From Leucoraja erinacea (taxonomy: Eukaryota), in the NCBI RefSeq assembly GCF_028641065.1, contig NC_073390.1, positions 16,182,001 to 16,246,000 on the forward strand: a stretch of 64,000 nt of DNA. The letters are read 5' to 3'. The translations under genes and the position numbers were made by a program. Positions 4,738 to 62,700 of this stretch are shown in pieces (position 1 is the first letter of the stretch; the number at the start of each line of letters is the position of its first letter). The notes beneath the pieces are model-generated. The model saw nothing but the letters and a program-made list of their open reading frames with translations, made no database searches and was not told the origin of the DNA.

Positions 4738-7621
4738 TCAGTATCCCGTACCTTCCTTCTCTCCATACCCTCTGATCCCCTTAGCCACAAGGGCCACATC
4801 TAACTCCCTCTTAAATCTAGCCAATGAACTGGCCTCGACTACCCTCTGCGGCAGAGAGTTCCAGAGATTCACCACTCTCTGTGTGAAAAAAGTTCTTCTC
4901 ATCTAGGTTTTAAAGGATTTCCCCCTCATCCTTAAGCTGTGACCCCTTGTCCTGGACTTCCCCAACATCGGGAACAATCTTCCTGCATCTAGCCTGTCCA
5001 ACCCCTTAAGAATTTTGTAAGTTTCTATAAGATCCCCTCTCAATCTCCTAAATTCTAGAGAGTATGAACCTTTCTTCATAAGACTGTCCTGACATCCCAG
5101 GAATCAGTCTGGTGAACCTTCTCTGCACTCCCTCTATGGCATTAATGTCCTTCCTCAGATTTGGAGACCAAAACTGTACGCTATACTCCAGGTGTGGTCT
5201 CACCAAGACCCTGTACAACTGCAGTAGAACCTCCCTGCTCCTATACTCAAATCCTTTTGCTATGAAAGCTAACATACCATTCGCTTTCTTCACTGCCTGC
5301 TGCACCTGCATGCCTACTTTCAATGACTGGTGTACCATGACACCTAGGTCTCGCTGCATCTCCCCTTTTCCTAGTCGGCCACCATTTAGATAATAGTCTG
5401 CTTTCCTGTTTATGCCACCAAAATGGATAACCTCACATTTATCCACATTATACTGCATCTGCCAAACATTTGCCCACTCACCCAGCCTATCCAAGTCACC
5501 TTGCAGTCTCCTAGCATCCTCCTCACAGCTAACACTGCCCCCCAGCTTAGTGTCATCCGCAAACTTGGAGATATTGCCTTCAATTCCCTCATCCAGATCA
5601 TTAATATATATTGTAAATAGCTGGGGTCCCAGCATTGAGCCTTGCGGTACCCCACTAGTCACTGCCTGCCATTGTGAAAAGGACCTGTTTATTCCTACTC
5701 TTTGCTTCCTGTTTGCCAGCCAGTTCTCTATCCACATCAATACTGAACCCCCAATGCCGTGTACTTTAAGTTAGTATACTAATCTCTTATGTGGGACCTT
5801 GTCGAAAGCCTTCTGAAAGTCCAGATACACCACATCCACTGGTTCTCCCCTATCCACGCTACTAGTTACATCCTCGAAAAATTCTATAAGATTCGTCAGA
5901 CATGATTTACCTTTCGTAAATCCATGCTGACTTTGTCCAATGATTTCACCACTTTCCAAATGTGCTGCTATCCCATCTTTAATAACTGACTCTAGCAGTT
6001 TCCCCACTACCGATGTTAGACTAACTGGTCTGTAATTCCCCGTTTTCTCTCTCTCCCTCCCCTTCTTAAAAAGTGGGGTTACGTTTGCTACCCGCCAATC
6101 CTCAGGATCTACTCCAGAATCTAAAGAGTTTTGAAAGATTATTACTAATGCATCCACTATTTCTGGAGCTACTTCCTTAAGTACTCTGGGATGCAGCCTA
6201 TCTGGCCCTGGGGATTTATCGGCCTTTAATCCATTCAATTTACCCAACACCACTTCCCGGCTAACCTGGATTTCACTCAATTCCTCCAACTTCTTTGACC
6301 CGCGGTCCCCTGCTATTTCCGGCAAATTATTTATGTCTTCCTTAGTGAAGACGGAACCAAAGTAGTTATTCAATTGGTCCGCCATATCCTTGTTCCCCAT
6401 GAGCAACTCGCCTGTTTCTGACTGCAAGGGACCTACATTTGTTTTAACTAATCTCTTTCTTTTCACATATCTATAAAAACTTTTGCAGTCAGTTTTTATG
6501 TTCCCTGCCAGTTTTCTTTCATAATCTATTTTTCCTTTCCTAATTAAGCCCTTTGTCCTCCTCTGCTGGTCTCTGAATTTCTCCCAGTCCTCAGGTATGC
6601 TGCTTTTTCTGGCTAATTTGTACGCATCATCCTTCGCTTTGATACTATCCCTGATTTCCCTTGTCATCCACGGATGTACTACCTTCCCTGATTTATTATT
6701 TTGCCAAACTGGGATGAACAATTTTTGTAGTTCATCCATGCAGTCTTTAAATGTCTTCCATTGCATATCCACCGTCAACCCTTTTAGAATTAATTGCCAG
6801 TCAATCTTGGCCAATTCACGTCTCATACCCTCAAAGTTACCTTTCTTTAAGTTCAGAACCATTGTTTCTGAATTAACAATGTCACTCTCCATCCTAATGA
6901 AGAACTCAACCATATTATGGTCACTCTTGCCCAAGGGGGCACGTACAACAAGATTGCTAACTAACCCTTCCTCATTACTCAATACCCAGTCTAAAATAGC
7001 CTGCTCTCTTGTTGGTTCCTCTACATGTTGATTTAGATAACTATCCCGCATACATTCCAAGAAATCCTCTTCCTCAGCACCCCTGCCAATTTGATTCACC
7101 CAATCTATATGTAGATTGAAGTCACCCATTATAACAGTTTTGCCTTTGTCGCACGCATTTCTAATTTCCTGTTTGATACCATCTCCAACTTCACTACTAC
7201 TGTTAGGTGGCCTGTACACAACACCCACCAGCGTTTTCTGCCCCTTAGTGTTTCACAGCTCTACCCATACCGATTCCACATCCTCCAAACTAATGTCCTT
7301 CCTTTCCATTGCATTAATCTCCTCTCTAATCAGTAACGCTACCCCACCTCCTTTTCCTTTCTCTCTATCCCTCCTGAATATTGAATATCCCTGGATGTTC
7401 AGCTCCCAGCCTTGGTCACCCTGGAGCCATGTCTCCGTGATCCCAACTATATCATGGTCATTAATAGCTATCTGCACATTCAACTCACCCACCTTATTAC
7501 AAATGCTCCTTGCATTGAGACACAAAGCCTTCAGGCTTGTTTTTACAACACTCTTACCCCTGATAATTATGTTGAAAAGTGGCCCTTTTTGATTTTTGCC
7601 CTGGTTTTGTCTGCCTGCCAC
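4738..7621 (-). pseudogene. CR1 ORF2 (apurinic endonuclease + reverse transcriptase), inactivated
   Basis: Motifs NARSI, GITETW, YRPP, GDFN, SDH (APE) and QHGF, GVPQGS, FADD (RT). In-frame stops at 7253-7255 (TGA) and 5771-5773 (TAA). About 14 nt is deleted near 5070 relative to the sister copy at about 48410. Natural end ...GYGEKEGTGY-TGA at 4738-4740. The true start codon is uncertain. Confidence 0.92.
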
Positions 7622-7756
7622 TTTTACTTTTCACCTTGCTACCTATTGTTTCTATCCTCATTTTACACCCCTCAGTCTCTACGCTCATACATTTAAGAAA
7701 CCCTTTCCCTTTAACTCCATCCTCCACTATCCCATTCGACACCCCACCCCCCTTAT

Positions 7757-8683
7757 TCAGTTTAAAGCCACCCGTGTAGCAGTGGCAAACCTGCCTGCCA
7801 GAATGCTGGTCCCACACCTGTTAAGATGCAATCCGTCCCTTTTGTACAGTTCCCCCTTACCCCAAAACAGATCCCAGTGATCTAAGAATCTAAATCCCTG
7901 CCCCGTGCACCAGTTCCTCAGCCACACGTTCAGGTCCCGTATCTCCCTGTTCCTGCTCTCGCCAGCACGGGGAGCTGGAAGCAAACCGGAGATAACAACC
8001 CTGAAGGTCCTGCTTTTCAACAATTTTCCGAGCTCTCTAAAGTCACGCTGCAGAATATTCATCCCCTTCTTTCCGACATCGTTTGTGCCGACATGCACTA
8101 CCACTTCCAGATGTTCACCTTCGCCCTTGAGGATTTTCTGCACTCTATCCGTGACATCCTGGATCCTGGCACCGGGAAGGCAGCACACCATCCTTGCATC
8201 CCGTCTGTTGCTGCAGAAACCCCTGTCCGTACCTCTCACAATGGAGTCTCCCACTACAATGGCCTTGCCTGCCTTAGGCCTTTTTGGTTTTGGCTCAACA
8301 GCCCTATTCGCATCGCAAGCCAGTCCGCCACTCAGTGTAAATACGTCTTCTGTCCCAACAGCTTCTAAGCGGGTGAACCTGTTTACAAGAGGTACACCAC
8401 CCGGGGACGTTGGCATTCCATGCTTCCCTCCATTTCTCACTGTCTCCCACCTTCTCTCTTCCAGTACCTTAGGTGTAACAATTGTACTGTAGGACTTGTC
8501 GAGGAACGACTCCGTTTCTCGTACAAACCGGAGGTCATCCACTTGCTTCTCCAGTTCCCCAACACGGCCCTTCAGGAGCTCTACCTGGATGCACTTTTCG
8601 CATTTGTAGCAGCCAGAGGCACCAGCGGTGTCCTTGACCTCCCACATACTGCAAGCATCGCACTGAATCAGCTTGCCTGACAT
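7757..8683 (-). CDS. CR1 ORF1p: Cys-rich zinc finger-like N-terminus + coiled coil + SGNH/GDSL esterase domain (308 aa, uninterrupted)
   Basis: CDACSMW...CYKCEKC, then a heptad region (LLKGRVGELEKQVDDLR), then GDSIVRG, CLPGA, HVGTND and DGLHLN. This is the known ZF/leucine-zipper/esterase architecture of vertebrate CR1 ORF1. Confidence 0.93.
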   Translation of the reverse strand: MSGKLIQCDACSMWEVKDTAGASGCYKCEKCIQVELLKGRVGELEKQVDDLRFVRETESFLDKSYSTIVTPKVLEERRWETVRNGGKHGMPTSPGGVPLVNRFTRLEAVGTEDVFTLSGGLACDANRAVEPKPKRPKAGKAIVVGDSIVRGTDRGFCSNRRDARMVCCLPGARIQDVTDRVQKILKGEGEHLEVVVHVGTNDVGKKGMNILQRDFRELGKLLKSRTFRVVISGLLPAPRAGESRNREIRDLNVWLRNWCTGQGFRFLDHWDLFWGKGELYKRDGLHLNRCGTSILAGRFATATRVALN

Positions 8684-8902
8684 CTCCTTCTTTCGTCTCT
8701 ACCTCTCAAGCGTATTGCGTGGTCTCCTCTCCTCAGCCTCCTCGCCGAAGACTCTCGAGCCAAAGACTCACACTTTACTCACAGGACACTTCCCTCACAA
8801 GGCCACTCACTCACTCACTGCCGCTCGCTAAGAGCCGTCTTGCTTAAATTGACTGATAAATTGCCTGATTTACCAATTTACAAAGCAAATTCCTCTGTTT
8901 TC

Positions 8903-17977: not shown

Positions 17978-18158
17978 CGTAAAACATCGACCCTCCGGTC
18001 TCGTGCAGAAAGCGGACCCTCCGGTGTTTGAACAGAAAAATGGTCAAGATGGTGAGAATGAGTAAAAAGTTAAATATCAACAGTTGCACCGAATCCTGGC
18101 GATGACTTTCTGCGGCGCTGTGGCCCGAGGTGGACTTTGTCTCAAGGTGGAGCACCAT
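17978..18158 (-). CDS. SLC9A9: Sodium/hydrogen exchanger 9 (NHE9), coding exon 1 (181 bp coding)
   Basis: ATG in strong context (tcaagtATGG). Encodes [60 protein letters not shown]. Donor TACG|gtgag at 17977. [11 protein letters not shown] and HETGG are NHE9-type signatures. Confidence 0.93.
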
Positions 18159-21932: not shown

Positions 21933-23126
21933 ACCTTCTGGTGAAGATGCATGCACAGTGCTATTGGGCATGCATTTTCAGAATATGGACCCAGTGATAA
22001 TGAAAGGCAGTGATATATCTTTAAGTCAGGATGTTGTGTGACTTGGAGAGGGACATGCAGGCACTGGGACTGGTGATGTGGGACTTTAGTCCAACGGAGC
22101 AGCGAGAAGACAACGTGACCCAGATGGTGGAGGATCCTGGATGATAGATGCTGCCATCTTGAGGTATAATAATAATAATAATGGATGGGATTTATATAGC
22201 GCCTTTCTAGATACTCGCAGGTGCTTTTGATGGAGGAGAAGGCTGTGGCCATGATGGACTAAGCTGAGTCCTCCACTTTCTGCAGCCTCCTCTTAGGTTT
22301 CTGTGGATTGGAATTGCCATACCAGACATGATACTTTCCACAGTGCATCTGGAGAAGCTTGTTAGCTTATCCAGTGACATGCCAAATCTTTTGAAACATC
22401 TGTGAAAGTAGAGGTACTGGCGTGCTTCCTTCCTGATTATGTCAATGTGCCGGACCAGGACAGGACACCTATAAATTTGCCACTGCTCATTCCATCGGCT
22501 GCTAACCAACCAGTGAAATTAGTACGTGGTCTCCAGACATCCTATGCTCCCTTGTTTATTATATTGTTTAGAATATACTATGTTTGCATATTGTGTTGTG
22601 CTGCTGCAAGTAAGAATTTCATTGTTCTATCTGGAACATATGACAATAAAACACTCTTGACTCTCTTGACTTTCTTGGTCAACAATAGTTCTTGATGATG
22701 TTGCACGAGGGGTTGTTGTTGTGGCACTGCTCAAGCAGATGTTCCAGCTCTTTGTATGCTGACTCCTCACCACAAAGGAGAGAATTAGTCAATGGATAGA
22801 GTCAAAGAACTATGCAATGATTCAAACTGAATACCCATAGGTGCCAGATTTGGCAGAGTGCAGGAATCTCAGAGGGTTGCAGAGCTAGAAATAATTTACA
22901 AGAGAGCCAATGGTGTGATTATGAAAATAAGGATAAACATCTTAAACTCAATGTTGGAGGACGTCTCAGTGTCTATAGGCAGCCGGGTGAACAGAACTAC
23001 ACATAATGTCAACAATGACATGTAGAACTTGACATAAGTTACTATTTGAGAAGCAAAGTTCAGAATAATGCAGCAGAACACACAACGCGAGGAAGGCAAA
23101 CATGCAAATCATTTAAATATATCAAT

Positions 23127-23136
23127 TTTATTTATT
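23127..23136 (-). terminator. Polyadenylation signal (overlapping AATAAATAAA) of the 131-aa gene
   Basis: Two overlapping AATAAA on the minus strand, followed by a GT/T-rich downstream element (GCATGTTTGCCTTCCTCGCGTTGTGTGTTCTG). It ends about 1.2 kb of repeat-poor sequence after the stop at 24310. Confidence 0.6.
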
Positions 23137-24309
23137 TTAAACAATGGGAAGCTACATATAAATTATTTAGTATTTTATCAGGATCAACTGTTAGACCAAA
23201 TTTGATTTGATTGCACTTGAAGAATACAGAAACATTCAAAATTTCTTTTCAATTGAAGTTCAGGACTCATCCCTTAAAAGGAATCATTTTGCAGCAGTTC
23301 ATTCATTTTTAAAATACGATGTGACCAAAATAAAATCAGGAGATGTATCATGTTGAGGATTCATTTAAATTGATTCTGGCAGGTCATCATACTAAAGTGA
23401 GGCTATTTTCTACATTTCAATACAGTTGCAATTGTGTGAATGCTTACACCCACTGGGTTTGAAAACACCCACACATAAAAGCTTGGTCATGAAGCCCAAC
23501 CAAAAGCCTGCCAGAGAGGTGGATGAATTTCCATCAGTTTCAGGCTGCAGATTAGTTCATATAGAACAAAACAGATAGCAACTAAGCGACCATCTATAAT
23601 CCGGACTCTTCCACCTTTATAGTTGATGGAGCATGGGTGGAGAAAGGCAGCCGAGTAGAATGAACTAAAATTGTTTGCAGAGATGCCATGTTCTGTTCAC
23701 TGTGTGGAAGATACTGTGTTCATTGATAGAAGATGAATGCCATGTTTATAACAGAACACTATTCAACATTGTCTCATGAGTCTGGGACCATACTGCAAAT
23801 ATTTAAAGTGACAATTCAATATGCTTAAACTTCGTAGTTTGCATACGCCCAAATCATTCAGTTTAAATACATATCATTATCATTAATTATTGGCAGGTTT
23901 TGGAAATAGCTTAGCTGTTGATTATAGGTGGAGATTAATTTCTAATGTTTTCATTTGTCACAGGTAACAATGTCTCATTTTCTCATGTGTTTCCAACTTT
24001 AAAGTCTTTGAAGGATTCCCACGTCTCGTCAAACAAATTTGCGAGTCGATGACGACACCAACCCATCCTTACTGATGCGTAGTAGAATTAAAATAAAAAG
24101 TGATGCCATGCTGAAGCGACATTAAAAACATTCATACAATTATATATTGCACTTTTTTCCCCCTCATATGTGGCAGCAAAACCATGCTGAGGTTATTCAT
24201 GATTAAGTACAGAGCTGGCAGACCAGCTAAGGTTTCAATTTCTTTTTCCCCCAGGAGTATACATATCTATTGCAAACATACAAACTGGGCTGCCAGAGGA
24301 TCTACACTT

Positions 24310-24514
24310 TCACCATTCAATAGACCCAGGTTGTGAAGTCAGTTCGACAAAATCTTCATTGTAGTTTACTGGCACTGACAACACTATGTGGATCTTGAAG
24401 TTAACGACATTCAGTTCCTTATATTCGTCCAATTTGCTTTTCAGCTCTGATCGATCTTTCACAGCCTCTGCTCTCTCCTGTCCATCAGACGACTTGTGGC
24501 AAAAATATAAAGCC
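24310..24514 (-). CDS. Unidentified 131-aa protein, terminal coding exon
   Basis: Acceptor gtaacaatttttttactttatgcag|G, then 67 stop-free codons ALYFCHKSSDGQERAEAVKDRSELKSKLDEYKELNVVNFKIHIVLSVPVNYNEDFVELTSQPGSIEW-TGA. The leading G completes the AG left by the exon at 32003. Confidence 0.72.
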
Positions 24515-24979
24515 CTGCATAAAGTAAAAAAATTGTTACACTTCCTTCAGTTAAAGTATTCTGTTCTACATAAAAAGGACCTTTATTTGCTTCCTTGTGG
24601 AGATGGTAACAGTTCATTCCAGCTGGCAAGCCTGTTATGTTCACTTCTGGCACATCATTTAGGAATTCTGAAAATTCTGAAAATATGCACAATAATCTGC
24701 AGTAAACATTTGGTTCCATACAGCATGGTTAATGCAACAAAAACAAAAACAAATGTGTTGGAAGGAACTGCAGATACTGATTTATCCCAAAGATAGACAC
24801 AAAATGCTGGAGTAACTCAGTGGGTCAGGCAGCATCTTTGGAGAAATGGAATAGGTGATGTTTCGTGTCCGAACCATTCTTCAGACTCAATATAATATAA
24901 CACCAAAAGTATAATACTTTTCTACACTTACCAGATAGCATTGCATCAGTGGGCTGTTACAAAAAAAGAAATTGGCATA

Positions 24980-25592
24980 TCTATATAATTAAAAGTCTCA
25001 TCTTGACCAATTCCTGTCTGCGCTGTATATTGATTTTAGAAAAAAATGCTACAGTGTATCGCTGTGATTTTTGGCCATCTTACTCACGTCAATGAAAATT
25101 TAAAAAATTAAAAAATTAAAAGTTTAAAAAACCTTGAGATCAGCTGATTGGTCCTCTCGCCTGTCAATCATCTAGATGAAGGTAACACCCCTTCCGGAGG
25201 GTGGGAGGGAGGTGGGGCAGGACTATAAAACCCCGGCTGCCTGGACGTGAGTCAGTCACTCTGCAAGATCGCGAGGGAGAGGCCACGACTGTCATTTTTA
25301 GCTGTGAACTGTGAGTCTGCAATGTACTTGCAATAAATGATTTGTTTGCCCTTAATGACAATGCCATGAGTTGTTTGGCCTGCTGCCCTGTCTGTGCTTG
25401 AAAGTGCAATGCTTTATTAGGTGTTCGTGAGTGTGAGCGAATGTGTGTGTGAGTGTGAGTGTGAGTGTGAGTGTGAGCGCGCATGTGTGTGTGTGTGTGC
25501 TTATGTGGGAATTGGTGGAGGGGTGGGATATCGTGTTGGGGGACCAGCCCTCCTGTGTGAAGCTGGGACCCAACGGGTCCCACTTAGTCTAG
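24980..25592 (+). mobile_element. Non-autonomous Helitron (same terminal family as 12335-13259)
   Basis: Host A | TCTATATAATTAAAAGTCT... ; hairpin TGGGACCC-AAC-GGGTCCCA (25564-25582); ...CTTAGTCTAG | host T. Internal (TG)/(GTGTGA) microsatellite. Confidence 0.87.
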
Positions 25593-26003
25593 TAATGGAT
25601 AAATTCTGCTATCCCAATCTGGTCTTAATCTTACAGCAATGGAGTTGACTTCTGACCACACTCTGAAATGGCCTAGCAATTAGGGGTAAATGCTTGCCAG
25701 GGACCTTGTGAAATTAGGGGTAAATGCTTGCCAGGCCAGGAACACTTCCACGGGTGCTCCATCACTCAGAGGCTGCTGCTGTCCTTTTATCGGTGTGCAA
25801 TAAAATTAAGGATGCACACTTAGTAGGGTTGACAACCCAAACTCCTTAGGATGACAAAAAAATGACATCCCTACCCCGGACAAATGTGAGATTCAGATCC
25901 ACAAACAAGGAGTCGAACACTGCTATTAGGAGATACAGACTTTTAGTCAGAGCTTTGTCTGTGATTTTGTGCAGCTTTCTACCCCGATGAGCTGCTAGGA
26001 ATA

Positions 26004-26625
26004 TTCAATCAATCAATCAATCAATCAACTTTAGGAGTTTTTAGTCTTTATTGTCATCTTGCAAAGCAACAATTGTACAGTGCAAAATGAGAAGACGTTT
26101 CCCAGGGAATACCGGAGCATCGCACATAAAAAAAACATTTCACACATAATAAAAAAATGAAAACAATCCAGTCCCTGATGAAACAGTACAAATAGTTAAA
26201 AAGTGCAGGTAAAACAGCAACATTAAAATACAGTAATACAGTAAAAACAGTCATAAAATGTCCAGGGCAGCTGATTTAAGTGGCCAGTGCCAGAGTTATT
26301 AAAATGTCAGTGCAAAGCAGCAAAATCAGGTGGAGTGACTGTTTAGCAGCCTCACAGCCTGTGGCAGTTAGCTGTTTAGCAGTCTGGTAGTCCGGGCTTT
26401 GATGCTATGGTATCTCTTGCCTGATGGCAGGAGATCCAGATGTGTGTGGAGGGGGTGCAGTTTGTCCTTAGCTATTCTCTGTGCTTTTTTCAGACAGCGG
26501 CTCTGGAACAGTTCTTGTACCGAGGGTAGGGAGACGCCAATGATCCTTTCTGCTCCCCTCACTACCCTCTGCAGAGCCTTCCTGTCTGAGCAGTTACAGT
26601 TGGGGTACCACGTGTTCATGCAGTA
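26004..26625 (-). mobile_element. Rex1/Babar-type LINE 3' fragment with (ATTG)n tail
   Basis: ORF 26368-26628 has ALQRVVRGAERIIG...HPLH...LLPSGKRY...RTTRLLNS, the conserved C-terminus of this clade. Similar decayed fragments lie at about 22100-22480, 28130-28487, 43124-43520 and 53220-53990. Confidence 0.8.
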
Positions 26626-27324
26626 CATTCATTCAGTTAGGATTGACTGTTTTATTTAGATTTGGGTATCAGGCAGGAAAGTAGATTAGATATGAATCAT
26701 CTGTCATCTTTGTGCCTGAGGAGCAGTGATGTTCACTCTTGTTTCAAGTTCTTTCATCTGTGTAATGTAAACTTGATTCAGGTTAATTTGTTGAAATATC
26801 AGACAGTAATTTAAGGCTTTGTGGAAAACCCTCTCTGCAATTTGTTGATTTCTATAACCCAATTCCCCCTGCAGTGATGTTGTTATTTCAGCGGCTTTAT
26901 CAAGAGTACAAGATTAAGATAGATACTCAAAGAGGGAGATCATTGTAATTCTGTGTGGACCCTGGATAGAAGATTGAGTGCAAAACTCACACACACTGTT
27001 CCTGAAATACATTACAAGCTATTTTAACTTCTAAGCCTCATTTAAATCGCTCATCCTGGAAGGAGCTTAGAGGGAGGATTATGTGGCATGATAATTTACC
27101 TGATGGGAGGGCAGGGCCGGACAGAGGGAGTGTTGGCTCAGTCAGTCTCTCATTCAGGAAGTAGAAACAAGAAACTGCAGGTGCTGGTTCACACAAAAGG
27201 ACGCGGAGTGATGGAGTAACTCAACAGGTCATGCAGCATATCTGGAGAACACGGATAGGTGACGTTTCTGGTCGGGACTCTTCTTCAGATTCCCACCCTT
27301 GCATTACTCCTCATAACCCTCTCA

Positions 27325-27334
27325 GCCCCCCCCC

Positions 27335-27373
<39 letters not shown>
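27325..27373. repeat. Poly(C) tract
   Basis: About 48-nt C run with one A interruption. The length may be a sequencing or assembly artefact. Confidence 0.9.
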
Positions 27374-28487
27374 AGCAGTACCTCTCCTGAGCTTCCCTCC
27401 ACCTCTCTGAGCCCAGCCCTCACCCCAGTTTTGTTTTCATGATCCCCCCTGAGATTTCTCTTTCAGATGCAGAACGGTCGGTCCTCAAGAGCCCTTACCT
27501 TTGCCCCTCTACCCCTACCTCAACGAATTCCAGGCCCGCCATGATGTACAACTCTCTTTCCTCATATACATCTTCAGGCCTTTTTCGATGGAAAGGTCCT
27601 CGCCTCAGCTTTGATGACCTCTTCTGACATTCCCCCTCCTCTTTTGGACCCCCCCTCACCCCTGATGGCCTTCTACCATGTCTGGACCTTTTATAAAATA
27701 TTAATCTGAAGCAGGGACCTGACACAAAACGTTACCTCTCCATGTTTTCAGGAGATGCTGCCTGATCCATTTACTTACTCCAGCACTTGCAATCAGGAAG
27801 AACAGCGATGCCAATAGCTACATCTCATCCCGACATTGCTTGATGCTGAATAAAAGTAAAGGATTTTCAATTGTTGAAGGATGGTCGTAAGGCAAATAGC
27901 AGGGAAATCAAGTTAGAAATATAATGTACTCTCTGTTCAGCACTAGGCCAGAGATCTGTCAGGATTGATGGTCAAGTTAACTAACTGCTATTAAATGTTA
28001 TATTGGCTTCTATGGTAGTGAATACAATTTAAAAAAAAAAAAGTCAACGAGTTTTCACCACTGATGGGCTGATTTAGGTTGATTGGTTAAAATTTATTTC
28101 TAAGTTCCTAATCTAGCCTTAAACTCATACTGCCTCAGCAAGGCCACCAGCATAATCAAGGACAAGTTGTACCCTGCCACTCCCTTTTCTCCCCTCTCCC
28201 ATCGGGCAAAGGGTGTAGAAATGTGAAAACGCACAACTTCATATTCAGGGTTTCTACCCAGCTGTTATCAAGCAACTGAACCATGCTACCAACAACTAGA
28301 GAGCGGTCCTGCACTACTACCTACCTAATTGGAGACCCTTGGACTATCTTCAGCCTTTACTGGCTTCATCGTGCACTATACATTATTCACGTTATTCCCT
28401 TGATCATGTATCTGTACATTCTGGATGGCTCGATTATCATCATGTATTATCTTTCTGCTGACTAGTTAGCACGCAACTAAAGCTTTT

Positions 28488-29047
28488 GAATTGAATTGTA
28501 TACTTTATTGTCACATGGGACAAGTCACAGTGAAATTCTTTGCTTGTATACCCAAGGTATGCAAATAGTCGCCCATAAAGGGCGCTTACAACGTTACAAA
28601 TTCCCCACCCACGCCAGTTCCCTCTTTGGTCTTCCCCCTCTACCCCCTCCCTCACGGCAGTTCCCACACACTGGATCCCCATTGTCCATTGTTCTTTTGC
28701 CCTCCCCCTCGGCGGTCCTCCCACGCCAAGTCCCCGTTGCTCTCCCCCCTTCCTCATGGCGGTCCCCTCACCCCGTGTCCTACTTTGTTCCTTCCCTTGG
28801 CAGCGGCATCCTCACTTCCACGTGTCCGTCACCATCATCGACGCCGCATCGACCTCTCCATTAATGTTATCGGGGCCTGTCCGTACTCCTCTGTGACGTC
28901 CACCTAGGCACCAGCTATGGGCTTCATCGACCCGCGAGGCTCCACCACCGACTAGCTAGGTACCGGCCCGCATGGCCTGGGCTCCAGCCCGCGAGGCCAA
29001 GGCCGCGAGGCACCGGCCTTGGCTTCTCAGCGGCACCGCCGGAACTT
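28488..29047 (-). mobile_element. GC-rich non-coding interspersed element with a GTGACAATAAA...(CAATT)n-type tail, inserted in a Rex1-like 3' UTR
   Basis: It interrupts ...CTAAAGCTTT | CGGTATACGTGACAATAAACTAAAC, which is contiguous in the adjacent similar tail at 29140-29236. CpG-rich 5' part. Confidence 0.55.
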
Positions 29048-30288
29048 CGGTATACGTGACAATAAACTAAACTCATTTCAACACGCCTTGATAATTGGTG
29101 ACGTGTGGGAAGTCTGTGTGGGCTTTAGGTGGTGACAATCGATTGTAATCATGTATTGTCTTTCCGCTGACTGGTTAGCATGCAATAAAAGTTTTCACTG
29201 TACCTTGGTGCACATGACAATAATCTAAACTAAACTACCTTCAGGAAAGTATGGGAAATACTAAATTCACAGAATCAGGATAGGAGAGAGGTGTGGACTG
29301 ATTACCATGCTATATACAAAAAGCAGAAGGTATAAAAACCCATCAAAAAGCAGGAGATAACTGGTGCCAATCATTATGGCCTGGAAACAGTAGGAAACAA
29401 TAGGGTTTAAGAAGGGAAACAATGGAGTTCAGAATCAAATACGATTTGTAGTGAGTTACTGGAATCCTAAATTATATCTGTAAATTATCTCCGTAGTGTA
29501 TGTTCTGACAATGAAGTTTATTGAATTTCTAACAAGTAGTTGTAAAAAGTGCCTTTCTTTTAGTACTGAATACTGAATAAATACCGCTATTTAAATCTAC
29601 AGTATTTTATCCAAAGAAACTGGCTGAGCAAAATAATAATAGCTACATCTCATCGCTAACCCATTAACTTTGAGCTTCAATTCTAAACATTCGAATTCTA
29701 AAGGGGGAGCCTGCGTGTTTTGTAACTTTGTCAGTGCGTATACATCGTGTATTCAAGCAAAGAATCTCACTGTGCTTTGTCACATGTGACAATAAAGTAT
29801 TCCTATTCCTATAGTTCTTCGTAAACTCTGCAGTAAGCTTGCACAGATCTGCAAAGAACTAGAGTGAAAGATGCATGGTGAGGAACATAGGATATCAATT
29901 ACATTTGTTTACTTATCATATCTGAACACACTAGAATGAATAGTATATGCAATAAAATAATATACAATAAATCTTGATGCAAAAGTTGATGCCCATTAAA
30001 CACAAAAAGTGGAATACAGAACAATACAGCACAGAAACAGGCCCTTTAGACCATGATGTCCATGCCAAACTCGATGTCAAATCAGCATCTCCTCAGCATG
30101 CACATCCTTCAATTCCCTGCATTTCCTAGTGCCTCTCTAAAAGCCTCTTAAATGCCACTATCGTAGCTGCCTCTCCCACCAGTCCTGGCAGCATGTTCCA
30201 GGCACCCACCACATCCCCTGTAAAAAACTTGCCCTACACATCTCCTTTAAACTTTCCCCAACTCATCTTAAAGCTATGCCCTTTAATC

Positions 30289-30577
30289 TTTAGAGATAAA
30301 GCAGGGAAAGAGTCCCTTCGGCCCACCATGTCTGTCCCGACCTGCGTTTCCCCCGTACACTAACACTATCCTACACACTAGAGACAATTTACAATTTTAC
30401 CAACGCCAATTAATCTGCTCGTCTTTGGAGTGTGGGAGGAAACCGGAGCACCCGGAGAGAACCGACGTGGTCACAGGGAGAACCTACAGACAGAGTCCAT
30501 ACAGCCAGTACCCGTAGTCAGGATCGAGCCTGGGTCCCTGGCACTGTAAGGCAGCAACTCTACCGCTGCACCACTGC
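30289..30577 (-). mobile_element. V-SINE nested in a CR1 3' fragment (about 30015-30760)
   Basis: tRNA-like head at 30577 and a V domain. CR1 sequence continues on both sides. Confidence 0.8.
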
Positions 30578-32002
30578 AAATTTGTCTTTGACATTTTCAC
30601 CCTGCGACAGAGGTTCTGACTGTCTACCGTATCTATGTCTCTCATAATTTTATATACCGATCAGGTTACCCATCAGCCTCCAATATTCAGAGAAAACAAC
30701 CCAAGTTTGTCCAACCTCTTCTTACAGCCAATACCCTCGAATGCATGCAGCATTCTGGTACTGATTTATTGATAAAGAATTGGTTCCTTTAATTAACCTC
30801 TTAAAAACATGGAATGAAATTAAAACAAAGCAATGGTTCTTACTGCAGATAAGAAAATGGAACATGGATCATAACTGGAGTGTGAAGAAGGGTCCCGACC
30901 TGAAACATCATCTTTTTCCTCCAGAGATGCTGCCTGACCTGCTGACTTACTTCAGCACTTTGTGTCTATAACTGGAACAATGTTGTGCAACCTTGTTTAT
31001 TCGTGCACAAACATTCTCAAATTCTCAAGGGAATTCACCTTACTCTCATCTCATCCATCTTACAAGCACAGGGAGCTACTGGATTTTTTGATTATTAAAT
31101 TGAGGCTAATAGGTCGGCAGCTTCTCTCTCTTCCACATACCCACTGAGCTCCACATATGCTACTATTCCTGCTTTTGCCCCTAAAGCCCTTACTCCGCTA
31201 TCTTTAAGAGCCCTATCTAACTCTCTCTTGAAAGTATCCACAGAACCGGCCTCCACTGCCCTCTGAGACTGAGAATTTTACAGACTCACAACTCTCTGTG
31301 TGAAAAGTGTTTCCTCATCTCCGTTCTAAATGAAGAGAGAGTGCCGGAGTAACTTAGCGGGCCAGGCAGCATATCTGGACAGCATGGATAAATTAGGTTT
31401 CAGGTTGGGACCCTTCTTCTGATCCACAACGTCACCTATCCATGTTCTGCAGAGAGGCTGCCTGACCGGCTGAGGCACTTTGTATCTTTTTTTGTAAATC
31501 AACATCTAAAGTTCCTTGTTTATACTAGCATCTTTTTCCAGTAGTTTTACTCCTGTCTTCTCTTTTGTCCTCGTTAACATGCCTATTAAATTAATCACAT
31601 CTCCTGTCTTCCTTCTGAGGGAAGGAACGCAGACTTCCCAGTCTAGTGCATTAGTAACCTGACACATCAACGTGGATGACTGGCAACAGTTTGTCCTCAT
31701 TGCCACTCATTAGCATTTAGGGATGGATGATAAATGCTGGACTTACTAGCTAAGTCCACCTGCCATGAATAAAGTATTGTAATACATTTGTTGTCGCCAA
31801 TCTTCTTAGAAATAACCCTATCCCTCTGCCCTTGCAAACTCAACTGAACTCTATTGTCAAAAAATTAAGTTATCGCCCGATGAACCTCAATTTTCATCAA
31901 GTTGTCAAAAGTCAGCAAATGGTCAGGTTGAGCCTGTGACAGTACAGACACTTCAGGCTTCGATAAACATTGCATGGCAATTACTCCAAATGATTCATGT
32001 AC

Positions 32003-32193
32003 CTGAACCCAGTGTTTGCGTAGCTGACCTTCTGCCATCCACGCTCCTGAAGAAAAGGCTTTATTACTTTTTTATGAATATCTTTTGGAGCTCCGCCGGG
32101 AGTGGCCACAGTCATGTAAAACAAGTTGCTGTCTTCACCATGCTTCTGAGAGGATGTGATTTCATCCATTATTTCCTGAGTGCTGATATCCAT
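32003..32193 (-). CDS. Unidentified 131-aa protein, first coding exon
   Basis: Acceptor ttgatttccag| at 32213-32214, 19 nt of UTR, Kozak context CCGCCAACATGG. 63 codons MDISTQEIMDEITSSQKHGEDSNLFYMTVATPGGAPKDIHKKVIKPFLQERGWQKVSYANTGF + AG, then donor CAG|gtacat (phase 2). Non-repeat sequence. Confidence 0.72.
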
Positions 32194-32424
32194 GTTGGCG
32201 GATTAAATTATTCTGGAAATCAACGCAACAGTTGACACTCTGTGAAGGAGAACGTGAGTCATAAGATGCCAGATTTTAGCCTTCATCAAAATAACATGTT
32301 TTACATGAATCTTAAATAAGATCTGTTTGGGAAACTAACATATTTTTGACTACACACATATTTTTACAGCAAAATATGTCTTTTTGAAATGACAATTCTG
32401 ATCACTATCGTCATAGTCATTGTG

Positions 32425-34872: not shown

Positions 34873-37800
34873 AGGGTCTCCACTGAGTGCTTCAGTTCCC
34901 TTCCACATCCTGAAGCTGTGCTGGTATATTAATTGGCTTTTGTATATTAATTGGCCTTTGTACATTACCTAGCATGGGTAAATGGAAAAAGAATCAAAGG
35001 GTTGTTAATGGCCATGAAAGAAATAATAGGTATCAGGGGTATAGGTCCTTTGCCCGAGATGTGATGGGCTGAATGGCTTTCTGCTGTGTCATAATAAGAA
35101 TTCGGTCAACCTCAGTTGTCATTATACTCATCAAATGAATTCCCTATGGGAGAGAATATCAAACTATCATCTCAATTCTGGTCATTGGTTTAAATTGCAT
35201 TGGGCTCTCCAGAAAGATGAAACAGTCTCTCAGCATTTATTCGGTGACACAGAGTACTGTGTGATGACTTTTCATTCTTTTAATCTCTCGAATAAAGTCT
35301 TAGACCATTCAATTTCACAAGGTTATCTCCTCACCCCAAAATCAATCTATTGGAACTTATTACATAATCGCATGGGAAGGTGTATCTTTGGAGACTGTGA
35401 TTTGTGATTTGATTTGTGTAGAAGTGTCTCAAATCCCTCTGATCAACAACACAGTTTTAAGGCGAGAGGGAAACCTTTAAAGGAGATATGTGAGGTAATT
35501 TTGTTTACACAGCGAGTGGTGGGTGGCAGGAATGCACAGTCATGGGTAGCGGTAGAAACATTTCAAATGCTTTTGGATAGGCACATTAATATGCAGGGAA
35601 TGGAGGGAAATAAATTATGTGCAGCCAGTTGAGATTAGTTTAACTTGGCATCATTTACGGCATGGACATTGAGAGGTGAAGAGACTGTCCCTCTGCTGTT
35701 CTGTTCTATATACCTCACCATTATATATACCTGCACTTGAATTTGGTTGTTTGCAGCGTGGACTGCCTTCTGCGCATGCGGAGCAGCCTACCACGCATGC
35801 GCAGTCCAAGTTTCTTGGTGGGTTTTTCAAACATGGATTGTCCTTATCTTAACAGTATCTTAGGAAATCTGCCTCGCTCATGTCAGCCGCTTCCCGCAAA
35901 TCCTTTAATTCTGACAGTGCGATCAAGGGACCAAATGAGGTTGCTCGTCTGTCGGAAGTTAAGGATTTGCGGGAGGCTGAAATTAGTGAGGCCGGCGAGC
36001 GGCAGGAGAGAGGTGTTCAGCCGGAGAGTACTGCCAGAGGTGAGCTGGCCTGCAGAAGGCGCTGAGGTCCCGGCGGCCAGTTCCGCTGTCTGGTCCCGGC
36101 GGTTGCTCGCAGCGACCCGAGTTGCTTCCCTCCCCGGCCACAATGCGGTGGCTCTGCGTCCGGAGTGCCGCGGCAGTGGTGAATGAGTTGCTGGCAAAAT
36201 GAATTGTTACTTTCTATATTTTTATTTTTTTGAGTGTGAGAAATTCTATGTCCCACCAGCCATCTTTCAAAATTTAGCAACTCAAAATGGGGGTGCGTTT
36301 TCATTGACGGGAAATACTATACTTTATTAAGTGATATGGCTTTTGAGGACTTTATAAAAGCCGACTGACAGCTTATGGAGAGGAGAACAATCTGCACATG
36401 TGCGGTTTAAGATTTTTTAAAAGCCGACTGAATGCCTACCCCGAGTAATTACTCACGGCACGTGCCTGCTATTTATTCACCATGCTTTGTATTATTAGCT
36501 AACTCACATACAATATTTGGAGCAAAGAAATGTTGATGCGGCAAATCTGTAACAAGGAGAGAATGCTGGAAGCATTCACAGGTCAAGCAGCAAGAGCATT
36601 AAGGAAAAAAACTGCAGATGCTGGATTTCAGCAAGCAGCGCTATGCGTGGTCCATTAATCTAAGGCATTGATATTGATTGCTGAGGATAAGACCCAAGCA
36701 GTCATCCTTGAAACATTCCATGAGTTACCATTCTGAAAAGTATTCTCTTTTTTGTCCATTAGCCAATCTTAATCAATGGCAATATATATATATATTTTTT
36801 TTTTATAATATTTATCTTATTAGAAGCAATTGTACAAGGAGAAAGTAATCGACATAGCTATTATACAATATTCGTCCAACTTCAGTTTTAACATTTTATA
36901 AACTGATAAGTAAATCGGAAAAAAGAAAAAAGGAAAGAAGCGAACGGAAGAAGAAAGGAAAAAGAAAAGAATTTCAAAAAAGATACGGAAAAGGAAAAAG
37001 AAAAACCCTTGAATTAACAAAGGAGTGAAAAAAAAGCAGAGATATATCCCACTACCCTTACCTACGCCCGCTCACCTGACCCTAGCGTCGGTTTTGAATT
37101 TGTGTTCAACCATTATGTTGTTGAAGAAATTCAATGAAAGGAGACCATATTTTGGAAAATTGATCCGATTTGTCCGACAAAACAAGCCTTATTTTGTCTA
37201 AATGTAGTGTCTCGGTCATTTCTGTGATCCACATCTTCACTGTGGGAACTGTTATCCTTTTCCAGAATTTAAGTTTTTTCGCAGTTATTAAACCATAGTC
37301 AAGGAAGCGTCTTTGGAATTTCGTTAACTTAGGGCAGCCCTCTGACATTCCTAATATTATTAATTTTGAATCTGACTCCAATTGAATTTTGAGTGTTTTA
37401 TAAATGGTATTGAATATTCCCATCCAGAAGTTTTGTATTTTTATACAGGATGCAAAAGAATGGGTTAGGGTAGCTTCTTGGAAGTGACATTTATCACAGA
37501 GAGGGAAGACAGTTGGGAAAATCTTGTTCAGTTTGATCTTTGAGTAGTATAACCTATGCAATACTTTGAATTGTATCAGGCAATGCCTGGCATTTAAAGA
37601 ACAGTAATGTATGTATTGTAGGCTTTCCTCCCATATATCTTTTGAAATGGGTAAACCCAGCTCGTCCTCCCATGCTCGCCTATAAATCTCAGAAGGTGGG
37701 GTGTCAATATTTAGAAGAGTGTTATAAATGTAAGATATCAACTTACTTGTATCGGCATGTCTATTCAAACAATCGTCTAATATATCTGGACCCATAAGAG

Positions 37801-39241
37801 GACAGTCTTGTGTATATGTTTTCACATAATCTCGGATTTGAAGGTATCTAAAAAAATTGTTGCCGTTCAAGTGATATTTCTCCTGTAGTTCTTGAAAGAG
37901 AGAGAGAGTCCCCTTCTTATAGAGGTCTCCCACAGTATTGATTCCCAGGTTCTTCCATTGAACAAACACCATATCTAAAGTAGACGGTTTAAACGAGGGA
38001 TTGTTTGCCATAGGAAGAAGGAGGGACATGTTTCTCAATTTAAGACTGAATTTCAGCTGTTTCCAGATACGGATAGTACTATGTATTATCGGATTTTGCT
38101 CATATGTTGACTTATTCAAATGTATTGGAGATAGGAGGATCGAGCCTATACTAAAAGGCAAACAATCTTCCCTCTCCATTTTTAACCAATTTACATGTTG
38201 ACATGTATCGTCCAACCAGAAAGTTATATTTTTAATATTAGTTGCCCAGTAGTAAAAAAGAAAATTAGGTTGAGCTAATCCTCCATTTTCTTTGGATTTG
38301 CACAAATGTCTTTTGTGTATTCTATGGGTTTTGTAGTCCCAAATAAAGTTAGTGACAATAGAAAACATTTTTTTTTAAAAAGCTTTTAGGGAGATATATC
38401 GGTATTGATTGAAATAAATATAAAAGTTGTGAAGGAAGATCAACTTTATGGCATTTAATCTACCAATAAGGGAGATAGGAAGTGTTTTCCAAAATTGAAT
38501 GTAGGCATATAGTTTAGTGATTAATGGTGGGAAATTTATTTTAAACAGAAAGGAATACTTTCTAGTCACGTAAATTCCAAGATATCTGAACTTTTCAGTA
38601 ACAATTCTGAAAGGAAATTGCTGGTGTTGAGAAGGGTCTTGTTCTTTTATTGGCATGATTTCACTTTTATTCCAATTTATTTTGTATCCAGAGAAAGAAC
38701 CAAATTGTTCTATACTGTTTAGAACATTTGGAATACTAACTTGTGGATTAGTAATGTATAAAAGTACATCATCTGCATATAACGAGATTTTATTGGTGGT
38801 TTATTCGGTATTGTATCCATAAATGCCTGAATGGGACCTGATACTCTCGGCAAGAGGTTCTATGACTAAAGCAAATAACATTGGAGAAAGGGCACATTCT
38901 TGTCTGTTACCCCTAGATAAATAAAATTTAGGTGAAAGCATTTGATTTGTCAGTATTCTAGCTGTCGGATTAGTGTATAAAAGCTTCACCCATAAAGTAA
39001 AGTTTTCTCCCTATTGAAATTTTTCCAACACTGTGAAAAGATAAGACCCTTGCACTCGAAAGCTTTTTCTGCATTAATAATTGTTAGATCTTCATTTGGC
39101 ATTCTCTGCAAATATATTATGTTTAACAAACGTCTCAAATTATAAAACGAGTGTCGTTTAGGTATAAAATCAGTTTGATCTGGATGTATTAGTTTACAGA
39201 TAACCAAGCTTAATCTACGAGCCAAAGCCTTAGCTAGTATC

Positions 39242-39905
39242 ACCTCTCGTACCACCTTCCCTCTCGTACCACCCCCTCCCCGGGCACTTTCCCTTGCAAC
39301 CGCAAGAGATGCAACACTTGTCCCTTTACCTCCCCCTTCGACTCCGTTCAAGGACCCAAGCAGTCGTTCCAGGTGCGACAGAGGTTTACCTGCATCTCCT
39401 CCAACCTCATCTATTGCATCCGCTGCTCTAGATGTCAGCAGATCTATATCGGTGAGACCAAGCGGAGGTTGGGCGATCGTTTCGCCGAACACCTCCGCTC
39501 GGTCCGCAATAACCAAGCTGACCTCCCGGTGGCTCAGCACTTCAACACCCCCTCCCACTCCGTCTCCGACCTCTCTGTCCTGGGTCTCCTCCATGGCCAC
39601 AGCGAGCAGCACCGGAAATTGGAGGAACAGCACCTCATATTCCGCTTGGGGAGTCTGCATCCTGGGGGCATGAACATCGAATTCTCCCAATTTTGTTAGT
39701 CCTTGCTATCTCCTCCCCTTCCTCAGTCCCCCTGCTGTCTCCTCCCATCCCCCAGCCTTCGGGCTCCTCCTCCTTTTTCCTTTCTTGTCCCCGCCCCCCC
39801 CACCCCCGATCAGTCTGAAGAAGGGTTTCGGCCCGAAACGTTGCTTAATTCCTTCGCTCCATAGATGCTGCTGCACCCGCTGAGTTTCTCCAGCTTTTTT
39901 GGGTA
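39242..39905 (+). mobile_element. 5'-truncated Penelope-like element (GIY-YIG endonuclease + terminal repeat) inserted in the L1
   Basis: ORF to 39699 with NLIYCIRCSRCQQIYIGETKRRLGDRFAEH. 14-bp TSD CCTTAGCTAGTATC at 39228-39241 and 39906-39919. Confidence 0.93.
39811..39845 (+). ncRNA. Minimal hammerhead ribozyme-like motif in the Penelope terminal repeat
   Basis: CTGAAGA-A-GGG(TTTCGG)CCC-GAAA-CGTT contains the conserved CUGAnGA and GAAA boxes around a short stem II and a palindromic ACGT stem III. Minimal hammerheads are an established feature of PLE terminal repeats. Confidence 0.7.
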
Positions 39906-59712: not shown

Positions 59713-62700
59713 GTAGACAATAGGTGCAGGAGTAGGCCATTCGGCCCTTCGAGCCAGCACCGCCATTCAATGCGATCATGGTTGATCATCCACAATCAGT
59801 ACCCCGTTCCTGCCTACTCTCCATATCCCTTAACTCTGCTATCCCTAAGAGCTGTATCTAACTTTCTCTTGAAAGCATCCAGAGAACCAGCCTCCACCAC
59901 CCTCTGAGGCCCACAATTCCACACACTCACAACTCTCTGTGTGAAAAGGTTTTCACTCATCCCCGTTCTAAATGGCTTACTACTTATTCTTAAACTATGG
60001 CCCCTGGTTCTGGACTCCCCTAACATTGGGAACATGTTTCCTGCCTCTAGCGTGTCCAAACCCTTAATAATCTTAGATGTTTCAATAAGATTCACTCTCA
60101 TCCTTCTATTCCAGAGTATACTAGCCCAGCCGCTCCAATCTATCAACATATGACAGTCCCCGCCATCCCGGGAATTAACCTTGCGAACCTACGCTGCACT
60201 CCCTCAATAGCAAGAATGTCCTTCATCAAATTTGGAGACTAAAACTGAATACAGTAATCCAGGTGTGGTCTCACTAGAGCCCTATACAACTGCAGAAGGA
60301 CCTCTTTGCTCCTATACTTAATTCCTCTTGTTATGAAGGCCAACATGCCATTCGCTTTCTTCACTGCCTGCTGTACCTGCATGCTTACTTTTAGTGACTA
60401 ATGAACAAGGACCCCCCAGATCCCGTTGTACTTCCCCTTTTCCCAACTTGTCACTATTTAGATAATAATCCTCCTTCCTGCTTTTGCCACCAAAGTGGAT
60501 AACCTCACATTTATCCACATTAAACTGCATCTGCCATGCATCTGCCCACTCACCCAACCTGTACAAGTCACCCTGCATCCTCGTAGTATCCTCCACACGG
60601 TTCACACTGCCACCTAGCTTTGTGTCATCTGCAAATTTGCTAATGCTACTTTTAAATCCTTCATCCAAATCATTAATATATATTGTAAATAGCTGGGGTC
60701 CCAGCACCGAGCCTAACGGTACCCCACTAGTCACTGCCTGCCATTCTGAAATGGACCCGTTAATTCCTACCCTTTGTTTCCTGTCTGCCAACCAATTTTC
60801 TATCCATGTCAGCACCCTACCCCCAATACCATGTGCTCCAATTTTGCCCACTAATCTCCTATGTGGGACCTTATCAAATGCTTTATGAAAGTCCAGGTAC
60901 ACTACATCCACTGGCTCTCCTTTGTCCATTATCCTGGTTACATCCTCAAAAAATTCCAGAAGATTACTCAAGCATGATTTCTCCTCCTTAAATCCATGCA
61001 GTCTCGGACCGATCCTGCTACTCACTTACGATTTTCCCTTCTCCCTCTCAGATTGTAGATTAAAACATCATATTATGGTCACTACCTCCTATTGGCTCCT
61101 TTACCTTGAGTTCCCTTATCAAATGCGGTTAATTACACAACACTAAATCCAGAATTGCCTTCTCCCTGTTAGGTTTCAGTACAAGCTGTTCTAGAATCCA
61201 TCTCGGAGCGACTCCCTAAACTCCCTTTCTTGGGGTCCTGCATGTTGAAATCTCCCATAACCACCATAGCACTACATTTGCTACATGCCAATTTTGACTT
61301 GATTCAACTTGCACCCTATATTGTTTGGGGGTCCATAGATAACTCCCATTAGGATATTTTTACCCTTACAATTCCTCAGTTCTATCCAAACTGACACTAC
61401 ATCTCCTGATTCTATGTCAACCTTCGCAAGGGACTGAATTATATTCCTTACCAACAGAGCTACCCCACCCCCTCTGCCCATCTGTCTGGCTTTTCGATAG
61501 GGCGTATACCCCTACCTGAATATTCAGTTCCCAGCCCTGGTCCTCTTGCTGCCATGTCTCTGTAATTCCCACAACATCATACTTGCCAATTTCTAACTGA
61601 GCCTCATGCTCATCCACTTTATTTCTTATACTTCGCTCATCATATACAACACTTTAACTTCGGTATTTACCTCCCCCTCCCACACTTGTCACTATTGCCC
61701 CTGACACTCTCTTATCCCTTCTCGGATTTTCCTTCCCATTAATTCGGGAGTCTTTTGTAACTTTTCCTGTACTCACTTCTCCTTTAACTCCATCTTTATA
61801 CTCCCAATTTGTCCCCCCCTCCCACCTGCTATTTAGTTTAAAACCACATGTGTAGCACTAGCAAACCTGCCTGCCAGAACGTTGATTCCACTCCAGTTAA
61901 GGTGTAACCCGTCCCTTTTGTACATGTCACCCCTACCCCAGAAGAGAGCCAGTGGTTTGTAAATCCAAATTTCTGCTCCCTGCACTAGCCGCGTCACACA
62001 TTCAGATCCCCTATCTCCCTGTTCCTGCCCTCACCAGCGCAAGGTGCAGGAAGCAATCCAGAGATAACCACCCTAGAAGTCCTGCTGTTTAAGAAAGAAC
62101 TGTCGACCCGAAACGTCGCCTATTCCTTGAAGAAGGGTCTCGACCCGAAACATCGCCTATTCCTTCTCCCCATAGATGCTGCCTCACCCGTTCAGTTTCT
62201 CCAGCATTTTTGTCTATCCTAGAAGTCCTGCTTTACAGTCTTCTTCCTAACTCTCTAAACTCGCGTTGCAGAACCGCCTTCCTCCTCTTCCCAACGTCGT
62301 TTGTGCCCACAAGCACAGCTATCTCCGGCTGCTCATCTTATTTCTCGAGGATGTTCTGAAGTTGATCCGAGACATCTTGAACCCTGGCACCAGGGAGGGA
62401 ACAGACCATCCTCATGCCTCGCCTGCTGCCACAGAAACTCCTGTCCGCACCTCAGACAAAGGGGCCACCCACAACTATGGCTCTGCCCGACATTGGTCTC
62501 GCCGGTCGAGTCTCATCTCTAGGATTGAAGCCACTGACCTGTCCGCCGCTCAGACTGGAAGCGTTGTTTGCCCCGACAGCTCCCAAGAGAACTCCTGCAT
62601 TTTTACTCATGGGGTCTCCTGCACTCCACGTTTACTTCCCTTTCTCACAGTCACCCACCTTCACTTTTTCTGTATCGTTGGCGTGACAATCTCATTGTAG

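Follow-up and report, generated by a model that had tools for sequence, protein, structure and literature searches.

The active site of VapD consists of a strand-1 aspartate (D7/D11) and a serine (S46) in the dimer cleft (PMC11980593), the strand-1 aspartate is conserved in Cas2 and in BPSL1038 (D11) (PMC10491678), and GhoS depends on a catalytic arginine (Arg28) in helix 1 (PMC4010927). Glutamate synthase (GltB, GOGAT) is known from bacteria, plants and 'eukaryotic microorganisms and lower animals' (PMC8097209) and has been found in ctenophores (10.1101/120998); the catalytic residue of its glutaminase is the N-terminal cysteine, and the accessible text of 10.1101/2021.04.12.439528 states no role for the insert of the amidotransferase domain. 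Here, we compare with these systems a two-exon gene for a 131-amino-acid protein on the minus strand of a 64,000-nucleotide stretch of the skate Leucoraja erinacea (NC_073390.1, positions 16,182,001 to 16,246,000; the window), which a first-pass annotation had likened to the Cas2/VapD/GhoS group of small nucleases. On balance, we slightly favour the view that this conserved ferredoxin-like protein derives from the insert of the GltB/GOGAT amidotransferase domain and is a small binding module rather than a Cas2-type nuclease.

The AlphaFold2 model, built on an alignment of 80 family members (pLDDT 87.6, pTM 0.79), places the elements at H5-17 E24-30 H39-49 E54-56 E64-70 H77-99 E106-110 H116-123. 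The prediction confirms the ferredoxin-like βαββαβ order and bears out the strand and helix positions that had been read from the sequence by eye, with two further helices at the N- and C-termini. Database searches gave little to name the family by: scattered weak or low-complexity matches only in Pfam, NCBIfam, PADLOC and PHROGs, blank PDB sequence searches, no usable match in the ESM Atlas, no match at E 0.001 in a viral fold library and, for the 80 members against Pfam, no hit among the 25 families listed. The fold scores of Cas2, VapD, GGDEF and glutamate synthase were near ties.

The link to glutamate synthase comes from both sequence and fold. Of 301 Pseudomonadota genomes searched with the family profile, eight gave weak matches, six of which were GltB, all at one and the same stretch; this stretch is the insert within the amidotransferase domain, and the fold search, which found a structural match to the GATase_2 insert, aligned the same residues (7mfm_G 76-195). 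With GltB sets picked by PF00310 alone (52 inserts, 36 once those more than 70% alike were removed), hhalign aligned the family with the insert along 82-85 columns at scores of 28.7-31.6 and P 1e-4 to 7e-4, the best of all sets. Shuffled profiles attained this score in 0/300 and 1/450 cases, and the top of 53 other real windows reached 20.4. As a control, the GltB insert against a known split-type homologue scored 31.2, so true homologues can score at the level of the family and GltB. In a plain MAFFT alignment the GW-x-x-V motif, the helix-2 arginine and F-x3-S-x2-S-x4-Y are in register between the two. The family shares the structural W, R, F, S and Y with the GltB/GltA insert (part of PF00310; Bacillus subtilis 7mfm_G ~70-200) at about 15% identity, but differs in standing alone without the catalytic cysteine or the N-terminal nucleophile (Ntn) sandwich, in a loop about 13 residues shorter after GWRxVP, in not retaining the KG after the tyrosine and in a conserved set of its own (T31, H40, R64, Y67, P112). 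Some Bacillota genomes (L178-L180) carry domain 1 of glutamate synthase as a split gene of archaeal type, and there the insert itself gave only P 1e-4 against the large-subunit insert.

We consider it probable that the family is homologous to the GltB insert and arose by its excision. Several observations weigh against this. GltB was chosen after the fact and the six GltB matches are closely related to one another; a scan of 401 Bacillota genomes produced 10 weak matches, none of them GltB; per sequence, one chance match scored above every GltB, and reversed profiles score up to 22-24. The signal is chiefly C-terminal and stems from the second of two subfamilies described below, the chordate profile alone being blank, and the family gives nothing against the split-type insert. 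In a joint tree (14 family, 12 GltB and 2 split-type rows) the branch between family and GltB measures about 6 changes per column, with unsettled bootstrap and no donor identified.

A somewhat unlikely alternative is an orphan family of animals whose ferredoxin-like fold is a common one; its likeness to the GltB insert would then be a pattern of amphipathic helices and strands that agrees by chance. The blank or weak database searches fit this explanation, as do reversed controls that attain 22-24 of the observed score of 29 and fold scores in the range termed common by the tool; against it, the sequence and fold searches independently reach the same 120 GltB residues, the spacing of the motifs is exact, there is a reciprocal hidden Markov model (HMM) shift and the score equals that of the true-homologue control. 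The first-pass annotation had proposed the Cas2/VapD/GhoS likeness and had noted that the acidic residue ending strand 1 was not evident. The latter holds family-wide, as aspartate or glutamate occurs at positions 24-32 in 0/80 sequences and Thr31 in 80/80. Of the former, the resemblance of the predicted fold to Cas2 stands, whereas membership is not supported, the acid being absent and the profile comparisons blank. Comparison with sequences taken from retrieved loci, 40 of the Cas2 family (Bacillota, none named VapD) and 8 of GhoS, yielded no signal in either direction: hhalign aligned 1-9 columns (Cas2 P 0.25-0.30, GhoS P 0.45-0.52) and reciprocal HMM scores were no different from the reversed controls, with more than 5 bits in 1/40 Cas2, 0/8 GhoS and, for the family against GhoS, 0/80 sequences. 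A Bacillus assembly has a 306-base contig (L012, G002) that encodes a stretch 100% identical to Escherichia coli GhoS 44-98 and is likely contamination.

A divergent nuclease of this group, with the strand-1 acid replaced as in GhoS and VapW and cutting RNA or DNA through conserved His, Arg, Tyr and Ser/Thr, is accordingly an unlikely explanation. GhoS (PF11080) shares with the family small size, a ferredoxin-like fold, absence of the Cas2 acid and a tyrosine in the terminal helix, and it was the top Foldseek match of a first, weaker model (E 0.014); yet with the better model it was absent from the matches listed. PF11080 finds no match in the skate genome, and family helix 1 keeps His40 and no arginine, in an alignment to GhoS Arg28 that is not reliable. 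As to Cas2 (PF09827) and VapD, besides the aspartate the family lacks a conserved serine after strand 2 such as S46 of VapD (none is common to both subfamilies at 57-63), shows no CRISPR or antitoxin context and has an additional N-terminal helix, which is covered by the GGDEF and GltB alignments and lies outside the Cas2 and VapD ones. Still a little less likely is a degenerate nucleotide-cyclase or polymerase palm of the GGDEF or class III cyclase type, binding nucleotides without catalysis. The signature of such palms is metal-binding acids plus a hairpin; the family has neither the strand-1 acid nor a GG(D/E)EF-like hairpin, hhalign gives P 0.28-0.34, 0/30 GGDEF domains exceed 5 bits and identity is 4-14%. 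We regard as very improbable a domesticated mobile-element piece related to HUH (IS200/IS605 Y1) transposases, whose signature is His-hydrophobic-His plus a catalytic tyrosine. TnpA is the top Foldseek match of the better model (E 0.0077) with hhalign P 0.018-0.024, Tyr115 is invariant before the C-terminal helix, and the second subfamily occurs in multiple copies, seems to lack introns and bears PCNA-box-like motifs; however, strand 3 (R-A-L-Y-F) has no His-hydrophobic-His, TM-scores are merely 0.31-0.39 at root mean square deviations of 6-11, TnpA is not in the 50 VIA rows listed and the skate gene is single copy.

Returning to derivation from glutamate synthase, the non-catalytic insert would have been excised from GltB, leaving behind the catalytic cysteine and the remaining Ntn fold, so that no glutaminase activity is expected. 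The whole-enzyme features, namely the N-terminal catalytic cysteine, Ntn fold, flavin mononucleotide and iron-sulphur domains, are absent from the complete 131-amino-acid open reading frame. To our knowledge, vertebrates lack glutamate synthase. Support for this here consists of negatives in the skate's own genome, where neither PF00310 nor a GltB query found a match, and of the phrase quoted above from PMC8097209; a literature search on glutamate synthase loss in chordates and on the insert subdomain returned nothing relevant.

The invariant polar set of the family (T31, H40, K55, R64, Y67, S110) points to a binding surface. In the second subfamily a Q-x-x-[LIM]-x-x-[FY] motif, mostly Q-x-T-L-D-x-Y, occurs in 44/70 sequences, which are related and do not represent 44 independent cases, against 8.4 expected, and in 40 it lies within the final 25 residues. 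Most of these copies lack the second aromatic residue that belongs to the canonical PCNA box (PMC3973308); one member (P0034) has a TD-type box resembling the core of a PIP degron. Among tunicate and tunicate-like sequences, 8/10 have two CxxC pairs, seven of them around a basic patch resembling a nuclear localization signal; the two paralogues of Styela clava (P0024, P0025) both lack the cysteine pairs found in other tunicates. Because of the PCNA-box-like motifs in one branch and the tunicate cysteine-pair insert around a basic patch, we tentatively propose that the module works in the nucleus, where it would act on DNA or on partners associated with replication. The skate protein, which has neither motif, would be a stripped core contacting a partner through T31, H40, K55, R64, Y67, S110 and Y115. 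The module is thus probably a non-catalytic binder, for which the nucleus would be the likeliest place, and a new catalytic site may have arisen on its sheet.

Named orthologues are found in Rhinoraja longicauda (91% identical), Chiloscyllium punctatum (82%) and Cetorhinus maximus (73%) and, among tunicates, in Ciona, Clavelina and Phallusia (51-52%) and Styela (44-46%); no paper was found naming their identifiers (six searched). When 1.84 billion representatives were searched with the profile, 24 proteins came up at E <=0.001. Those with names are tunicates, and neither bony vertebrates nor lampreys nor amphioxus are named among them, most matches being nameless and 12 looked up. Eleven of the 24 fall into the second subfamily, which was enlarged with 69 matches out of 8,000 scored candidates; it is represented here by 70 nameless members from ENA, JGI and Logan environmental assemblies, with acidic low-complexity inserts. 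Several of these lie on contigs of equal size (four at 40,560 bases; contigs reach 3.5 Mb), which suggests tandem copies. Pattern scans found no relatives of this subfamily in viral or GTDB contigs, and a query with one of its sequences detected no second copy in the skate genome. The single metagenome match (L003, 25% identity within a 396-amino-acid bacterial open reading frame) was judged to be chance. The homology of the two subfamilies is clear from an hhalign comparison (P 1e-27 over 122 columns). A 33-row tree separates chordates from the second subfamily (100/100); inside chordates it sets cartilaginous fish apart from tunicates, and sharks apart from skates. Two fragments end, and three start, at the position of the skate exon junction or immediately beside it, which suggests that the intron is shared. 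Tree order and fragment ends together favour vertical descent.

The gene is real, contains an intron and is transcribed. All eight motifs quoted in the first-pass annotation lie in a single minus-strand frame of two exons. The first coding exon (32003..32193, minus strand, 191 nucleotides) runs from Met1 to the second base of the Arg64 codon, covers the N-terminal helix, strand 1, helix 1 and strand 2, and is followed by a GT donor; the second (24310..24514, minus strand, 205 nucleotides) encodes residues 64-131 and TGA with strand 3, helix 2, strand 4 and the C-terminal helix. The GT-AG phase 2 intron (24515..32002, minus strand, 7,488 nucleotides) splits the Arg64 codon and contains repeat fragments. 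The spliced product is identical to protein record P0009, found on 27 Logan contigs, the longest of which (1,891 bases) is too short to contain the intron. No run listed as carrying these contigs is recorded as RNA, and the evidence for expression is read mapping of four runs over window positions 22500-25000, the exon 2 side. In the raw RNA runs X20 and X24, depth is ~1-6 on exon 2 and the 3' untranslated region and falls at the acceptor to <=0.07 just inside the intron (bin 24516-24599); in X24 first mates map solely to the plus strand, the pattern expected of minus-strand RNA, a 389-nucleotide contig of run X1 departs from the genomic stretch at the acceptor, and run X17 shows little signal. 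Expression looks low in the samples mapped. The 3' untranslated region (23105..24309, minus strand, ~1.2 kb) has AATAAA at 23132-23127 and an inferred end; reads and contigs of X1, X20 and X24 occur in bins 23088-24347, and bins 22752-23087 have none. Upstream, a 5' untranslated piece (32194..32214, minus strand; transcribed part 32212-32194) is placed from the sequence; it follows an AG acceptor (32214-32213; pyrimidine-rich), which implies a putative non-coding exon further upstream. The gene is present once in its own genome (two matches, one for each exon). Records P0018/P0013 include a Rhinoraja isoform of 94 amino acids omitting residues 28-64, which would disrupt the fold, and a 70-amino-acid read-through product of exon 1.

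Elsewhere in the window, two GCGCATGCG motifs, presumably NRF1-like, stand face to face at 35772-35802 (2 observed versus 0.02 expected) adjoining a GC-rich stretch. This region, with a donor-like site near 36040 (plus strand), is a candidate promoter and non-coding first exon of the 131-amino-acid gene, possibly two-way. A sodium/hydrogen exchanger of the NHE6/NHE9 type has its first coding exon at 17979-18158 (minus strand; PDB sequence search, NHE6 E 1.5e-15, NHE9 E 1.9e-13), on the strand of the 131-amino-acid gene and some 5 kb downstream from the latter's 3' untranslated region. Short repeat fragments at 24768-24870 and 22576-22669, which we take to be SINE-like, attract thousands of RNA reads originating elsewhere in the genome, and broken retrotransposon frames (5048-8698, 37106-38800 and 60318-61025, minus strand; 39238-39699, plus strand) are presumably reverse transcriptase, endonuclease and GIY-YIG-like pieces.

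With respect to the meaning of these results, the tempting claim of a vertebrate Cas2 is removed, and an undescribed family gains a testable origin instead. It is conceivable, as a rather speculative history, that in an early animal lineage the GltB insert was cut out to become a stand-alone nuclear family, one branch of which came to be carried in tandem arrays with PCNA-binding boxes, the chordate branch persisting as a single copy for more than 500 million years, outlasting, in cartilaginous fish, the enzyme from which it came, and being lost in bony vertebrates. If so, a metabolic subdomain would have found a second use at the replication fork, its sheet having gained a new site for binding or catalysis, and the subdomain's independent life would offer a handle on the job of the insert in glutamate synthase, as far as the accessible text on that enzyme goes. 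As the searches returned no bony-vertebrate relative, the gene marks a function that cartilaginous fish retained and bony vertebrates appear to have lost.
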